In this document: piece after piece, positions 13,092 to 18,958 of the stretch
Numbering within the stretch: position 1 is the first letter of the stretch
How the letters are laid out: every line of letters begins with the position of its first letter
Source: a virus
Taxonomy: Duplodnaviria > Heunggongvirae > Uroviricota > Caudoviricetes
IMG/VR virus record: IMGVR_UViG_2534681761_000010
DNA length: 44,374 bases
Direction: 5' to 3' (one strand)
Notes under the pieces: generated by a model
The model's database searches: none
What the model was told of the DNA's origin: nothing
The model's input: the letters and a program-made list of their open reading frames with translations, nothing else
Made by a program: the position numbers and the translations under genes

Positions 13092-14147
13092 GTGCGGGTA
13101 TTACTTCGACCTGTTCTGGTACCGGAACTCGGGCTGGTGGTCGTTAAGCCGGGCCGTGAATCCATGCCGGTATTCCACAATACCCGGGTACTGGTGGAGC
13201 CGGAACCGAAAAGCATGCGTAATCTGCCGTCCGGGGTCGTTCCTGCCGTTCGCCAGCCGCTGGTGGAAGACAAAACATTGCTGCCGTTTTTCAGTAACGC
13301 ACGGGTAATTCGTGCTGCTGGTGGTGCTGGTGCATTGTCTGACTGGCTGTTGCGCCATATTAAATCCTGCCAGTGGCCACACGGCGATTATCATCACAGC
13401 GAAACCGTTATTCACCGATATGGTACCGGCGCAATGGTGTTGTGCTGGCACTGCGACAACCAGCTGCGTGACCAGACATCCGAATCACTCGAGCAACTTG
13501 CTCATCAAAACCTGTCAGCATGGATGATTGATGTCATACGCCATGCAATGAATGGCACGCAGGAGCGGGAATTATCGCTGGCTGAATTATCCTGGTGGGC
13601 AACCATAAATAACGTAGCGGACGCACTACCGGAGACGGTATTACGTCGTTCGCTGGGATTACGCGCGGAAAAAATCCGCTCGGTGTACCGCGAAAGCGAC
13701 ATCATACCGGGAGAGCAGACAGCCACCAGCATCCTGAAACAGCGCACAAAAAGTATTGCGCTACTGCCTCACGCCCACCAGCAAAACCCGCCACAGGAAA
13801 AGACGGTGGTCAGCATTGCCGTTGATCCGGAGTCACCGGCTCAGTATCTCCAGCGCCAGAAACCACAACGGGAAGAGATGCCCGTATACACGCGCTGGGT
13901 AAAAACGCAGAAATGCATGACGTGTGGCAATCAGGCAGATGATCCGCATCACATCATTGGTCATGGACTGGGAGGGATGGGAACAAAGGCTGATGATTTG
14001 TTTGTTATTCCGCTGTGCCGTAAATGCCATAGCGAACTACACGCCGGGGTAAAAGATTTTGAAGAAAAACACGGCAGCCAGCTGTTGTTGCTGATTCGTT
14101 TTTTAATGCACGCGAGAAATTCGGGTGTCCTGAAGTGGAAAGCATGA
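13092..14147 (+). CDS. DUF968 (YdfU-like) protein with C-terminal HNH/zinc-ribbon-like motif
   Basis: GTG start with GGAGG SD; C-terminal CMTCGN...HHIIGH...CRKCHSELH metal-binding motif; precedes rusA as in lambdoid nin regions. Confidence 0.55.
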   Translation: MRVLLRPVLVPELGLVVVKPGRESMPVFHNTRVLVEPEPKSMRNLPSGVVPAVRQPLVEDKTLLPFFSNARVIRAAGGAGALSDWLLRHIKSCQWPHGDYHHSETVIHRYGTGAMVLCWHCDNQLRDQTSESLEQLAHQNLSAWMIDVIRHAMNGTQERELSLAELSWWATINNVADALPETVLRRSLGLRAEKIRSVYRESDIIPGEQTATSILKQRTKSIALLPHAHQQNPPQEKTVVSIAVDPESPAQYLQRQKPQREEMPVYTRWVKTQKCMTCGNQADDPHHIIGHGLGGMGTKADDLFVIPLCRKCHSELHAGVKDFEEKHGSQLLLLIRFLMHARNSGVLKWKA

Positions 14148-14525
14148 ATGACTGAACGCATAGAATTTGTTTTGCCTTACCCGCCAACGGTGAACACTTA
14201 CTGGCGACGTCGTGGCAGCACATATTTTGTATCAAAAGCCGGTGAGCGTTATCGCCGTGATGTGGCGCTTATTGTTCGCCAGCAGCGGCTGAAATTAAAC
14301 CTGTCCGGAAGGCTGGCGATAAAGGTGATTGCAGAGCCACCGGATAAGCGCCGCCGCGACCTGGACAATATCCTGAAGGCACCACTGGATGCGCTGACGC
14401 ATGCCGGACTACTTATAGACGACGAGCAGTTTGATGAAATCAATATTGTGCGCGGTCAGCTCGTTCCTGGTGGGCGGCTGGGCGTGAAGATTTGCGAAAT
14501 CAGAGGCGATGGTAATGGGGCGTGA
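14148..14525 (+). CDS. rusA: Holliday junction resolvase RusA
   Basis: LPYPPTVNTYWRRRG...DKRRRDLDNILKAPLDALTHAGLLIDD matches RusA catalytic motifs; start overlaps upstream stop. Confidence 0.8.
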   Translation: MTERIEFVLPYPPTVNTYWRRRGSTYFVSKAGERYRRDVALIVRQQRLKLNLSGRLAIKVIAEPPDKRRRDLDNILKAPLDALTHAGLLIDDEQFDEINIVRGQLVPGGRLGVKICEIRGDGNGA

Positions 14526-14865
14526 TATGTATGAGGTTTTAGATCGCTGGGGGGCATGGGCTGCAGCAGAAAATAGCGGTGTCGATTGGCAACCGATAGC
14601 AGCGGGCTTCAAGGGGCTTTTGCCACATGGCAAAAAGTCACGTCTCCAGTGTGATGATGATGAAGGCATCATGATAGACGGTTGTGTGGCTCGGTTGCGA
14701 AAGTATAAACCAGAGGAATATGAGCTGCTCATAGCTCACTTTGTTATTGGTGTTTCTCTACGCTCAATCGCGAAGAAACGCAGGTGCTCAGATGGAACTA
14801 TAAGAAAGGAGCTGCAAACTGCATTAGGCTTTATTGATGGATGTATATGCTTGATTCTATCATAA
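14509..14865 (+). CDS. Late-gene antiterminator Q-like protein (short Q family)
   Basis: 118 aa immediately after rusA; C-terminal HTH-like segment; assignment mostly positional. Confidence 0.45.
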   Translation: MVMGRDMYEVLDRWGAWAAAENSGVDWQPIAAGFKGLLPHGKKSRLQCDDDEGIMIDGCVARLRKYKPEEYELLIAHFVIGVSLRSIAKKRRCSDGTIRKELQTALGFIDGCICLILS

Positions 14866-14878
14866 GTTATGACTGTTA

Positions 14879-15265
14879 CTACTCGTTTGCTTGAGCTTTC
14901 GATTCGGCGTCAGATAAAGCATCAATACGAATATTTATGTTTTTTAATAGCTTATTGTCTAGATCGATAAGACATTGGTTGTAGTGCGCAATTTGGTCTG
15001 GTGTTAGGTTAGGGTTGGCCAGGCAGTTCGTGATGAATTTTCTGGCCGTTTTTATTTCCCTTTTCATTCTTACATCATTAAGCGTAGGCAAACCTATGTA
15101 AGCGATAAGAAGAATTACCACATGAGATAAGCCGACAGCAGCTCCAGGCGCCAATGATTTGAAGAAGGCTAATTGAGGAAGCCAGTCAAAAAGGAAATTC
15201 AATCCCGCAGTGATAAGGGTGGTAAACCATGCCTGCATTGCCAGGTAGGATTTAGTGTTCGCCAT
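14879..15265 (-). CDS. Membrane protein (2 predicted TM helices), third gene of divergent cargo operon
   Basis: Hydrophobic N-terminal half; start abuts stop of upstream gene; AT-rich. Confidence 0.5.
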   Translation of the reverse strand: MANTKSYLAMQAWFTTLITAGLNFLFDWLPQLAFFKSLAPGAAVGLSHVVILLIAYIGLPTLNDVRMKREIKTARKFITNCLANPNLTPDQIAHYNQCLIDLDNKLLKNINIRIDALSDAESKAQANE

Positions 15266-15511
15266 TCACCTTCCTGCACTTGCTTCGTTGCGAGTTTTGA
15301 GTTCGCGTAGCAGTAGCGCCAACTCTTCTGCGTCATTTTCGTTTCTAACGCTGACTTTCCTTTTAGCGGTTCTGCCTTCAGGATCGGTGTAGGTTAGTTC
15401 AATATACGCATTCGGCTTTACCCAAACCAAGAACCTAAGCACAGCATATCTGACCGTCGCTGCGACAGCCATGAATACAGTGATGTAAAGCATAATGCTT
15501 AGGATTGACAT
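15266..15511 (-). CDS. Small membrane protein (N-terminal TM helix), second gene of cargo operon
   Basis: MSILSIMLYITVFMAVAATV TM segment; 3-nt gap to upstream gene. Confidence 0.5.
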   Translation of the reverse strand: MSILSIMLYITVFMAVAATVRYAVLRFLVWVKPNAYIELTYTDPEGRTAKRKVSVRNENDAEELALLLRELKTRNEASAGR

Positions 15512-15514
15512 GAT

Positions 15515-16426
15515 TTAAAGTAGTTTCCTATCTGCCGCCGCTCTGTGGCGTATAACCTTAGTAATACTATAGCGTGGTTTAGACAGCGCGCCATTTGTTT
15601 CTTTTGTTGTTTCTGTCAGTTCTACAACAAAAAGATCACCCTTACAGAATGCTGCTTGGTTGTGTTCAACCCGTTCAAGAAAAGCCTCATCTTTCATAGA
15701 TGCACTAACTTCTTCGCCATTTGGCAGGATGATATCCCAGCTTTTGCCTTGCTTGAATCGAACATTAGCAAAATGTACATTAGCTTGGCGTGTCGTTACG
15801 TGCGTTTTCTCGACAAAGGTGGATTTTGCAGTTTTAAAACTTACTGCTTCAGCTTGCGTCACCCTGACTACCTTATGCTTCTGCTGTGAAACTGAGAACG
15901 TGGATGGTTTTTCAGTCTGCAGGGGTTTATAGATTAATTTATCCAGTTCTTTTCGGATGATTGGACTGGTTATTAATTTTTGAATGTCGTTACTGCATTT
16001 AACCTTCTCACCATCCACTTCGATTTCTGCTGTATCTTTTTGTTCATCGACGACAATGGAGCTGATTTTACGCCCTTTGAGCCATTCGATTATCCCGAGT
16101 ACGCCACCTGCGGCAACTCCACCACCTGCAACGAGGCCAAGGGCGTTAATAGTTTTTATGCTCCCCATCACAGCAACAAGCAAAGTAAATGAACCTTCTT
16201 TTGTTGCCTTGATGTTGACTTTCGGCTCTGCTGTTTCGCCATTAATTATTTTTTCGGCGTGTTCAATCAGGGCACTAAGAGAGGTTAAGGCTTCGCCTAA
16301 TGTTTTCGCGTCGATCTGATTATCTGCGTATGCCTCTCCACCGTAGGCAATTTCGATTTCTGTTATTGGCATGTTTTCGAGTTGCTGCGTCATCAAAAGC
16401 ATCCTTTGCGCAAGAGAAATAGCCAC
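15515..16426 (-). CDS. Hypothetical 303-aa protein with central hydrophobic/Gly-rich segment, first gene of cargo operon
   Basis: Central FTLLVAVMGSIKTINALGLVAGGGVAAGGVLGIIEW; no known motif recognised. Confidence 0.55.
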   Translation of the reverse strand: MAISLAQRMLLMTQQLENMPITEIEIAYGGEAYADNQIDAKTLGEALTSLSALIEHAEKIINGETAEPKVNIKATKEGSFTLLVAVMGSIKTINALGLVAGGGVAAGGVLGIIEWLKGRKISSIVVDEQKDTAEIEVDGEKVKCSNDIQKLITSPIIRKELDKLIYKPLQTEKPSTFSVSQQKHKVVRVTQAEAVSFKTAKSTFVEKTHVTTRQANVHFANVRFKQGKSWDIILPNGEEVSASMKDEAFLERVEHNQAAFCKGDLFVVELTETTKETNGALSKPRYSITKVIRHRAAADRKLL

Positions 16427-16516
16427 AGGATACAGATAATTATGAAAAAATCACTAACGCGTACGCAAAAACTATCTTAATCTGTTAAGAGTGGTCGCTT
16501 CGCCACACAACTTAAA

Positions 16517-16538
16517 CCCGCATCAAGCGGGTTTTTTT
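16517..16538 (+). terminator. Rho-independent terminator (tR'-like) upstream of the tRNA cluster
   Basis: CCCGC-ATCAA-GCGGG followed by a run of seven T. Confidence 0.6.
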
Positions 16539-16658
16539 GTGTCACTTATCTCGGATAGACATGGTGAATGCGCTGGTGGAGGAGATAAGGGTGATTTTTA
16601 ACCAGGTGATTTTTGAATGCTTGCAACATTGATTTCGTAACGTTATTATCCTGCGCCC

Positions 16659-16734
16659 GGCCCTTTAGCTCAGTGGTGAGAGCGAGCGACTCATAATCGC
16701 CAGGTCGCTGGTTCAAATCCAGCAAGGGCCACCA
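16659..16734 (+). tRNA. tRNA with CAU anticodon (tRNA-Ile2-like / Met)
   Basis: 76 nt; acceptor GGCCCTT/AAGGGCC, D-stem GCTC/GAGC, T-loop TTCAAAT, encoded CCA; resembles E. coli ileX as recalled. Confidence 0.8.
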
Positions 16735-16831: not shown

Positions 16832-16908
16832 GCGTTGTTAGCTCAGCCGGACAGAGCAATTGCCTTCTAAGCAATCGGTCACTGGTTCGAATCCAGTACA
16901 ACGCGCCA
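16832..16908 (+). tRNA. tRNA-Arg (anticodon UCU)
   Basis: 77 nt; acceptor GCGTTGT/ACAACGC, anticodon loop CTTCTAA, T-loop TTCGAAT, encoded CCA. Confidence 0.85.
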
Positions 16909-17083: not shown

Positions 17084-17509
17084 ATGTTTGGTATTTTCAA
17101 AAAGAAAACCCGCAAGGCCATTACCGAAGTGAAGAAGATGGAGAACCGCGACGCAGTGGAGGCGACCGTCTGGGGCGCGTATTCCATTGCATACGCTGAC
17201 GGCACCTGTGATGCGAAAGAAATCGCAGTACTGGAGAAAACCATTGCAGCACTTCCTGCCTTTGCGCCGTTCTCCGGTGAGATTGCCCAGATGAGCGCCA
17301 ATATCCGCGCCCGTTATGAAGCATCCCCGCGTTCAGCCAATGCCGAAGCCCTTCGTCAGCTGGCTGATGTCGCCGGTACTGATGATGCAGTTAATGTGCT
17401 GTGCCTGTGTCTGGATATCGCTGACCAGGATGGCATTGGTCCGGATGAAGAAGCACAGCTCAAGAAAATTGCGCAGGCGCTTCAGCTACCGCTGGAGCAG
17501 TACCTGTGA
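17084..17509 (+). CDS. Hypothetical 141-aa soluble protein, TerB-like by motif
   Basis: SD AAAGGAAAAG; two DG-x-D/E-E helix motifs (YADGTCDAKEIAVLEK and IADQDGIGPDEEAQLKK). Confidence 0.45.
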   Translation: MFGIFKKKTRKAITEVKKMENRDAVEATVWGAYSIAYADGTCDAKEIAVLEKTIAALPAFAPFSGEIAQMSANIRARYEASPRSANAEALRQLADVAGTDDAVNVLCLCLDIADQDGIGPDEEAQLKKIAQALQLPLEQYL

Positions 17510-17658: not shown

Positions 17659-17709
17659 CACCACACAAAAGGCATCTGCGGGTGCCTTTGACGGGGTATT
17701 GTTTTTTAC

Positions 17710-17731
17710 GGGCCGCTGGTGGCCCTTTTTT
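17710..17731 (+). terminator. Rho-independent terminator upstream of the lysis cassette
   Basis: GGGCC-GCTGGT-GGCCC followed by TTTTTT. Confidence 0.55.
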
Positions 17732-17750
17732 ATTTACAGGAGAAAAAAGT

Positions 17751-18143
17751 ATGTCTGAACCCTTATCCGGTTCCGGTACGGCTGCGGCGCTCGGTGGGGC
17801 GACGGTATTCGGGCTGTTTACCGGAACGGATTTCGGGATTGTGTTTGGTGCGTTCGCCGGGGCGTTATTTGTGGCAACAATTCCGCAGGCGCTTTCAGCC
17901 TGGCGTGTGGCGGCGCATTTTCTGGTGTCGTTCATTATCGGCGTGCTGGGGGCAGGGGTTCTGGCATCCTGGCTGGTAAAGCACACAGGGTTTGACGGAG
18001 CGCCTGTCGACGCACTGTGTGCAGTACTGGTGTCAGTGGTGTCGGTGAAGATTCTCTCGTTCATCCACCAACAGGATATCGCATCACTGGTGTCCGGCCT
18101 GTTATCTCGCCTGCGTGGCGGAGGAGGCGGCAATGTTAAGTAA
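17751..18143 (+). CDS. Membrane protein of lysis cassette (holin-like, Gly-zipper rich)
   Basis: AGGAGA SD; multiple hydrophobic GxxxG segments; directly precedes holin and endolysin. Confidence 0.45.
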   Translation: MSEPLSGSGTAAALGGATVFGLFTGTDFGIVFGAFAGALFVATIPQALSAWRVAAHFLVSFIIGVLGAGVLASWLVKHTGFDGAPVDALCAVLVSVVSVKILSFIHQQDIASLVSGLLSRLRGGGGGNVK

Positions 18144-18411
18144 CCTTCCCGGATTACTGAATGTGGCGTTATGCACGGTTATCGTGCTGACGCTCTTTTT
18201 TTATCGTCGCCGTGATTCCAGACATAAACCGCTGATGTCATGGCTGGCCTGGCTGCTGATGCTGCTGTATGCCTTTGTGCCCCTCAGCTATCTGTGTGGT
18301 CGCCCGTTAGCGGTGAACTGGCTGGCGGTGGGGCTTAATCTGCTGTTCTGCGTGCTGGTGATTCGCGCACGCGGGAACGTTTCAAAAATCTTTGTATTAC
18401 GAAGGCGCTGA
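18133..18411 (+). CDS. Holin (three predicted TM segments, about 92 aa)
   Basis: GGAGGAGG SD before ATG at 18133; three hydrophobic segments and charged C-terminus RRR; stop abuts endolysin start. Confidence 0.55.
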   Translation: MLSNLPGLLNVALCTVIVLTLFFYRRRDSRHKPLMSWLAWLLMLLYAFVPLSYLCGRPLAVNWLAVGLNLLFCVLVIRARGNVSKIFVLRRR

Positions 18412-18412
18412 T

Positions 18413-18958
18413 ATGAAGTCGAAAGATGAAATTTTTGACGAAGTTCTGGGAAAAGAGGGCGGTTACGTCAATCACCCGGATGATAAAGGCGGACCGACAA
18501 AATGGGGTATTACAGAAAAAGTCGCCCGCGCTCACGGATATCGCGGCGATATGCGTGACCTGACGCGCGGGCAGGCGCTGGAAATACTTGAGGCGGATTA
18601 CTGGTTCGGACCACGTTTTGACCAGGTCGCCGCATTATCCCCTGATATTGCTGCAGAGTTGTGTGATACCGGTGTGAATATGGGGCCGTCCGTAGCATCG
18701 AAAATGCTCCAGCGCTGGCTGAACGTTTTCAACCTGCAAGGCAAATTGTTCCCGGATATGGACGCAGACGGGCGTATCGGCCCCCGCACGATTAATGCAC
18801 TACGGGCTTATCTGCAAAAACGCGACAAAGACGGCGAACTGGTAATGCTGACTGCGCTGAACTGTACGCAGGGGGACCGCTATCTGGAGCTGGCAGAGAA
18901 ACGGGAGGCTAACGAGTCATTTGTCTACGGCTGGATGAAAGAGCGCGTAGCAGTTTAA
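18413..18958 (+). CDS. Endolysin, GH108-type lysozyme with C-terminal peptidoglycan-binding domain
   Basis: N-terminal EGGYVNHPDDKGGPTKWGIT is a GH108-type signature; follows holin. Confidence 0.7.
   Translation: MKSKDEIFDEVLGKEGGYVNHPDDKGGPTKWGITEKVARAHGYRGDMRDLTRGQALEILEADYWFGPRFDQVAALSPDIAAELCDTGVNMGPSVASKMLQRWLNVFNLQGKLFPDMDADGRIGPRTINALRAYLQKRDKDGELVMLTALNCTQGDRYLELAEKREANESFVYGWMKERVAV

Follow-up and report, generated by a model that had tools for sequence, protein, structure and literature searches.

What is the role of three genes that run against the late operon of an Escherichia coli lambdoid prophage? The prophage is IMG/VR record IMGVR_UViG_2534681761_000010, a stretch of 44,374 nucleotides (nt) that was analysed at its full length (hereafter the window). 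The three genes, called here A (15515..16393), B (15266..15511) and C (14879..15265), lie on the minus strand, antisense to the late operon. They are tightly packed: A and B are separated by 3 nt, B and C by 0 nt, and the stop codon of C is 13 nt from that of the convergent Q antiterminator gene (14865). A first-pass annotation had described this arrangement correctly and had proposed exclusion, abortive infection or envelope modification as the role of what it took to be a membrane-protein operon. We consider it probable that the cassette is a mobile accessory operon serving the lysogen, namely an abortive-infection-type anti-phage defence related to gp29/gp30 of mycobacteriophage MichelleMyBell.

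The argument begins with gene A. The first-pass annotation had found no recognisable homology for the three genes, a statement that does not hold. A matched phrog_3243, a family of unknown function (2.7e-94), the PADLOC model PDLC05015 for PDC-S42 (3.3e-53; protein residues 22-299 on model positions 4-294 of 302) and NCBIfam NF053583, named 'LAPAL motif-containing putative phage structural protein' (225.3 bits; cutoff 60). B and C matched phrog_27630 and phrog_26468, respectively, both families of unknown function. All 56 of 56 diverse relatives of A matched the PDC-S42 model. Rst_3HP and other named three-gene systems were also considered; among the PADLOC models none other than PDC-S42 matched A, and none at all matched B or C. 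Pfam gave no significant match for A, B or C. A sub-threshold Pfam match of A to the EACC1 domain (E 0.016) was repeated in none of the 56 relatives and was dropped as a chance match. The Pfam family DUF7946, for which no literature mention was found, matched the N-terminal half of 16 of the 56 homologues (best E 1.4e-06) and did not match the A of the window.

The family of A is large. While a word-indexed search with A returned 41 clusters, exclusively from Enterobacterales or Orbaceae, an exhaustive profile search returned 3,573 representative clusters at E<=1e-3, of which 2,045 reached E<=1e-10 and 300 reached E<=1e-30. Among the matches listed (n=150), the proteins were about 205-430 amino acids (aa) long, mostly about 290-310 aa, and these matched over nearly the full length. 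A related-locus search of genome contigs with A gave four loci.

The connection to a validated defence was found in this family. In GenBank, the A homologue of a Vibrio corticovirus-like prophage element (PQ189332) is labelled 'MMB_gp29_gp30__gp29'. The genome of MichelleMyBell (KF986246) encodes gp29, of 310 aa, followed by gp30, of 67 aa with two hydrophobic helices. Profile alignment (hhalign) of a 39-sequence A family with gp29 gave a probability of 96.8% (E 2.4e-10), and the profile of the 56 diverse relatives gave 99.0% (E 6.3e-18) over 270 aligned columns. The most conserved positions of the A family, K.GSF, W219, D..FL.RV, D(L/I)F and TKV..HR, are aligned with gp29, and gp29 itself matches PDLC05015 at 1.6e-16. 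From the profile comparison and the common PDC-S42 match, we therefore concluded that A, PDC-S42 and gp29 form one family. By these alignments, A is a full-length but distant homologue of MichelleMyBell gp29. Because of this homology, the cassette most likely represents a gp29-type defence in a three-gene form that has yet to be characterised, and abortive infection is the one of the three originally proposed roles that we favour.

MichelleMyBell (MMB) gp29/gp30 was reportedly described as a prophage defence of cluster N mycobacteriophages by Dedrick and co-workers in 2017, and its name in DefenseFinder is MMB_gp29_gp30. According to later sources, phage Tweety plates 4-5 orders of magnitude less efficiently on MichelleMyBell lysogens, and its escape mutants map to Tweety gene 54 (PMC8549241). 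The defence is called 'typical of abortive infection', adsorption and injection proceeding in its presence (PMC6426606), and gp29 is called toxic and gp30 a putative membrane protein (PMC11856565). The two systems are alike in several respects. A (292 aa) and gp29 (310 aa) are similar in length and share the PADLOC hidden Markov model; a small membrane-protein gene lies directly 3' of both; and both systems are temperate-phage cargo outside the core modules, close to the lysis genes. They differ in their membrane partners, since the cassette encodes an 81-aa B with one transmembrane (TM) helix and a 128-aa C with two TM helices and a helical arm, whereas MMB has the single 67-aa gp30 with two TM helices. 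They differ also in that the host of the cassette is Gram-negative, and in that defence by gp29/gp30 was demonstrated experimentally whereas that of the cassette is inferred.

The structure of A was predicted with AlphaFold2 from the 39-sequence alignment, resulting in a model of fair quality (pLDDT 82, pTM 0.76). In the model, an N-terminal beta-alpha-beta-beta domain (residues 10-76) is followed by two short helices (79-85 and 98-105) on either side of a Gly-rich loop of low confidence. Next come an alpha/beta domain in the middle (112-186) and, at the C terminus, an OB fold (195-284) with a beta1-beta2-beta3-alpha-beta4-beta5 barrel. An invariant RHRAA motif closes the OB-fold region, and OB-fold domains were the sole matches in fold searches with A. 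The central Gly-rich hydrophobic segment noticed in the first-pass annotation does exist: a Gly/Ala-rich segment at residues about 69-103 is conserved in position across the family, the hydrophobic linker of the domain map being placed at about 77-105. Its hydrophobicity is, however, borderline, the best 19-residue window having a median Kyte-Doolittle value of 1.56 in the 56 relatives and 1.09 in gp29, and AlphaFold2 placed no single membrane helix there. The possibility that A is an integral membrane protein was down-weighted for these reasons. Since the segment is only borderline hydrophobic, we treat A as probably soluble or peripheral, and mostly soluble in the predicted model. The description as a membrane-protein operon thus applies clearly to B and C and probably not to A.

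TM prediction supported one helix in B and two in C, as had been proposed. In B, a single strong TM helix at the N terminus precedes a conserved KP..YI.L.Y.D..G motif, and the tail of the protein is charged. Although B is conserved across genera, most RefSeq annotations of cassette-bearing E. coli genomes omit it. The model of C (pLDDT 76) showed a helical hairpin (residues 2-28 and 30-57), predicted to lie in the membrane and bearing an invariant PG..V..SH motif. Two long helices (62-82 and 89-127) come next and would form a cytoplasmic arm. The start codon of C abuts the stop codon of B, which suggests translational coupling of the two genes. The ratio of nonsynonymous to synonymous substitution rates (dN/dS) was determined against two diverged IMG/VR loci, L037 and L042, at dS of 0.5-1.4. 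A gave 0.05 with both loci, B gave 0.08 and 0.06, and C gave 0.06 and 0.04, respectively. Since all of them fall within 0.04-0.08, A, B and C are real genes under purifying selection. When the family alignments of B and C were compared with gp30 by hhalign, the probabilities were only 0.2% and 0.9%, and no relationship to gp30 was detectable.

The membrane character of B and C raises the question of whether the cassette acts at the cell envelope. One possible interpretation is superinfection exclusion, in which B and C, joined by A, would keep phage DNA out or impair the receptor function of incoming phages in the manner of Sie, Imm and Sp-type proteins. In its favour, two small inner-membrane proteins are encoded on a prophage, and the antisense orientation to the late genes is the one expected of a lysogen-expressed gene. 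In the homologous MichelleMyBell system, however, adsorption and DNA injection proceed (PMC6426606), which makes exclusion at DNA entry less likely. Furthermore, A is the largest and best conserved of the three proteins and is predicted to be cytoplasmic with a fold of the nucleic-acid-binding type, which would be unexpected for a block of entry. We regard exclusion as improbable. Envelope modification, the remaining suggestion of the first-pass annotation, found no support, as neither Pfam nor NCBIfam revealed a glycosyltransferase, flippase, acyltransferase or other enzyme domain.

Is the cassette a property of this prophage or of something more mobile? Two same-strand open reading frames (ORFs) lie 3' of A in 31 of the 33 loci with an A homologue. 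The first product, about 80 aa long, has its TM helix at the N terminus, and the second, of about 125-160 aa, has one or two such helices; the two ORFs could be aligned with B and C, with which they have motifs in common. The triad is kept down to 26-29% identity of A, in Vibrio, Pseudomonas and IMG/VR contigs. The surroundings vary widely. In Morganella prophages with other Q families (PF03589 and PF06323), the cassette lies antisense between Q and the holin gene, and in a Mu-like Orbaceae prophage it lies directly 5' of the holin gene on the same strand. In Pantoea and Serratia it is close to tail genes. In Enterobacter it is found at the edge of a non-lambdoid, non-phage island with a VapE-like primase and a resolvase, and in a non-tailed, corticovirus-like Vibrio element it adjoins the integrase gene. 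The triad was also found immediately 3' of a CI-like repressor gene and 5' of a GH108 endolysin gene. The A-B-C triad is a conserved accessory unit that moves between unrelated elements.

More distant members of the A family have other partners or none that is visible. One distant A homologue, of 315 aa, lies at 4001-5702 of locus L065 (ENA ERZ1757541 contig_11236), just 3' of a type I restriction HsdR gene, and matches PDC-S42 at 7e-94. Since its neighbour encodes a soluble 190-aa protein and not B and C, the partners differ between clades of the family.

The same survey bears on whether the cassette has a function intrinsic to the phage, as a virion or structural protein or as an accessory module of lysis or lysis timing. 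Such a function is implied by the NCBIfam name of NF053583, and the frequent holin and endolysin neighbours, on the same strand in L010 and L067, as well as the tail genes nearby in Pantoea and Serratia, would be consistent with it. On the other hand, in E. coli and Morganella the cassette runs against the late operon, and it also occurs in a non-phage island and beside integrase or repressor genes. It is missing from closely related prophages and has been deleted in one strain (TUM9757, see below). Both tailed and non-tailed phages carry it, which is unlike a structural protein. B and C match no holin, spanin or structural family in Pfam or PHROG, and the window has two holins and an endolysin of its own downstream on the other strand. 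A phage-intrinsic function thus seems very unlikely to us, the least probable of the explanations considered here. Because of the antisense orientation, the non-phage island, the tailed and non-tailed carriers and the dispensability of the cassette, NCBI's label 'putative phage structural protein' is probably misleading.

Accessory distribution, which the first-pass annotation had set as a test of its proposal, was borne out within E. coli also. Together with the variable positions described above, the cassette was present in only 37 of 5,426 complete genomes, always with at least 99.7% nucleotide identity, whereas the flanking rusA, Q and tRNA sequences match in about 3,200 E. coli genomes. 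Among complete E. coli genomes, the Q allele of the window always accompanied the cassette or, in one exception, its deletion scar. This exception is strain TUM9757 (NZ_CP128931; L018, 1998-2024), in which the region corresponding to 14924-16398 of the window is deleted between two copies of the microhomology AAAGCATC; the two cassette ends, the Q allele and the flanking sequences are all retained. It follows that the prophage can be maintained without the cassette.

This deletion is of interest for another explanation, that the three genes form a toxin-antitoxin-like addiction module which stabilises the prophage or island, A being toxic and B and/or C neutralising it, with no dedicated anti-phage role. 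The three genes are tightly coupled, the sole loss in E. coli took all of them together, and the cassette is present on several kinds of mobile element; moreover, gp29 is called toxic and has a membrane partner (PMC11856565). The homologous MichelleMyBell system, however, strongly reduces plating in a phage-specific manner, the escape mutations lying in a phage gene (PMC8549241), and Pfam and PADLOC searches of A, B and C found no known toxin or antitoxin domain. We judge an addiction module to be unlikely, if slightly less so than exclusion. It is worth noting that addiction and abortive infection are not mutually exclusive.

The preferred reading, an abortive-infection-type defence, also has points that weigh against it. 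The cassette and all the Gram-negative members are known from sequence only. The identity between A and gp29 is only about 21%, and because B and C are unlike gp30, the membrane half differs from that of the validated relative. The properties of the MichelleMyBell defence are taken here from secondary citations; a preprint that conflates this system with the (p)ppGpp-synthetase system of Phrann was left aside. PDC entries are untested candidates, predicted because some of their members are embedded in restriction-modification (RM), BREX or DISARM loci (bioRxiv 10.1101/2024.01.29.577857). Finally, the cassette often adjoins lysis genes and is on the same strand as them in two loci, which makes a lysis-related role formally possible.

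If the cassette is indeed such a defence, its action could be envisaged as follows. In the lysogen, a promoter of its own would drive transcription of the operon in the direction opposite to that of the late operon. A, largely soluble, would detect a product of a heterologous infecting phage through its C-terminal OB fold or its N-terminal domains, while B, with its one TM helix, and C, with its two TM helices and helical cytoplasmic arm, would hold A at the inner membrane or restrain it. Upon detection, the A-B-C complex would turn toxic, most likely by compromising the inner membrane, and phage production would be halted after DNA entry. Either A might be a toxin restrained by B and C, or A might be a sensor with B and C as the effector. 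In this scheme we infer the defence activity, its trigger, the identity of the effector and expression in the lysogen.

A more general proposal may be ventured tentatively. The gp29/PDC-S42 family, comprising about 3,500 clusters at 50% identity, might be a mechanistically new class of abortive-infection sensor-effectors, in which the OB fold reads phage nucleic acid or protein and the Gly/Ala segment, resembling a glycine zipper, inserts into the inner membrane with lineage-specific partners. The three-gene form would then be the main Gram-negative version, mis-annotated as structural. We regard this proposal as possible rather than probable.

How does the cassette compare with other known systems? 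The lambda RexA/RexB, Sbash gp30/31 and CarolAnn gp44/43 pairs are similar in that a prophage encodes a cytoplasmic protein of about 280-370 aa together with a small membrane protein, and their abortive infection is thought to act via membrane depolarisation (PMC6426606). The cassette could not be identified as RexAB-like, as there was no RexA/DUF4747-like match in Pfam and B and C have one and two TM helices, respectively, versus four in RexB. PDC-S42 was defined as a single-gene system (Payne et al., bioRxiv 10.1101/2024.01.29.577857), whereas three genes inside a prophage are found here. The clade of A does not fit this definition, B and C accompanying A in 31 of 33 loci.

Since the family has already been listed as a candidate and one distant member has been validated, the cassette does not represent a novel type of system. 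In the searchable part of the text and supplementary files of the PDC-S42 paper, no link to gp29 is mentioned, and literature searches on PDC-S42 and on the LAPAL motif gave no match. As far as the searchable literature shows, the explicit PDC-S42-gp29 link and the Gram-negative three-gene architecture with partners unrelated to gp30 are new, and so are the OB-fold prediction for A and the indication that the NCBI name misleads. A widespread candidate family (2,045 representative clusters at E<=1e-10) is hereby tied to the validated prophage defence of MichelleMyBell. Three genes make up the functional unit in Enterobacterales, Vibrio and Pseudomonas, and annotation routinely misses B. The member borne by E. 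coli offers the easiest host in which the mechanism of the family could be worked out.

Where, then, does the exchangeable unit begin and end? No ancestral empty site was found in the search for one, which yielded only the deletion derivative TUM9757. In the cassette-free phage PPompW, similarity to the window ends within rusA near the start of Q (14482) and resumes exactly at the hairpin of the tR'-like intrinsic terminator (16514..16541, plus strand; 8-bp stem and T-run, the terminator scan placing them at 16514-16534), and a different Q gene ends 65 nt 5' of this hairpin. These breakpoints indicate that the exchangeable module consists of Q, the cassette and about 120 nt, with its right boundary at the terminator. 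The placement of the cassette between Q and the late promoter and terminator, as first proposed, is plausible in view of this junction, but the late promoter was not confidently identified. A late promoter between A and the hairpin would fit the extent of the module.

Relatives differ in what the Q-to-pR' interval holds: PPompW has no cassette there, whereas the Stx1a-converting phage Stx1_499 (L063, LC567825) has a different one. At 3876-5983 on the minus strand of Stx1_499, an antisense three-gene cassette is followed by stx1A. Its Q is 92% identical to that of the window, and the alternative cassette occupies the same position behind Q. The three proteins (350, 130 and 221 aa) have no TM helices and no significant match in Pfam or PADLOC; the last one contains a D...GEAK motif reminiscent of PD-(D/E)xK nucleases. 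The different cassette of Stx1_499 suggests that the interval behind the Q type of the window is a cargo hotspot, a swap site for alternative antisense cassettes. Antisense morons are familiar in the Q-to-lysis interval of lambdoid phages, such as the nmpC/lc porin genes 3' of quuD-type Q genes and stx in Stx phages. They share the genomic niche of the cassette, with unrelated cargo.

The start of gene A and the signals for its transcription were also analysed. The first-pass annotation had given A 303 aa, which is the length of the ORF from a GTG at 16426. Translation very probably starts at the ATG at 16393, for a product of 292 aa, because an AAAGGA Shine-Dalgarno sequence lies 8 nt 5' of this ATG, the homologues of A are 288-300 aa long and PGAP also gives 292 aa. 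The GTG lacks a Shine-Dalgarno sequence and falls within the candidate promoter of the cassette (16439..16468, minus strand). This candidate, TTGCGT-18 nt-CATAAT, has 8 of 12 consensus positions; it scores under the threshold of the promoter scan, which itself did not report it. Taken together with the antisense orientation, such a weak candidate is only suggestive of expression in the lysogen. A promoter-like site (TTGATG-18 nt-TATCAT) was found on the plus strand at the 3' end of Q (14834..14863). Were this the late promoter, the late transcript would cross the entire cassette in antisense.

The composition of the cassette agrees with the earlier description as AT-richer than its flanks. The GC content is 43.3% in the cassette versus 50.5% in the window and 53-56% in the flanking rusA, DUF968, TerB and holin genes, but that of Q is also low (46%). 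The neighbouring genes are all on the plus strand. The DUF968/HNH gene (13092-14147) lies 5' of the RusA gene (14148-14525), which in turn lies 5' of Q (14509..14865; 118 aa; PF06530, 3.7e-45). On the other side of the cassette and terminator, ARAGORN identified tRNA-Met(CAT) (16659-16734) and tRNA-Arg(TCT) (16832-16908). They are followed by a TerB-like gene (17084-17509; PF05099, 1.2e-07; phrog_632 'tellurite resistance', moron category) and by two consecutive holin-family genes, Phage_holin_8 (17682-18143) and, with a small overlap, Phage_holin_3_7 (18115-18411). A GH108 endolysin gene (18392-18958) lies 3' of both. Lying between the tRNA genes and the lysis genes, the TerB-like gene adds a second accessory gene to the late leader region.

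Two further observations concern this leader region. PGAP annotates in other genomes a 36-aa 'antiterminator' coding sequence (WP_086259018.1), homologous to 16491-16601 of the window on the plus strand; this ORF runs straight through the terminator hairpin and is probably spurious. The homologue of the CAT-anticodon tRNA is labelled tRNA-Ile (ileZ-like) by PGAP in other E. coli genomes, versus tRNA-Met by ARAGORN, and the tRNA sets at the same spot vary among relatives, with Ile-Arg-Arg, Met-Lys-Arg and Ile-Lys-Thr-Gly.

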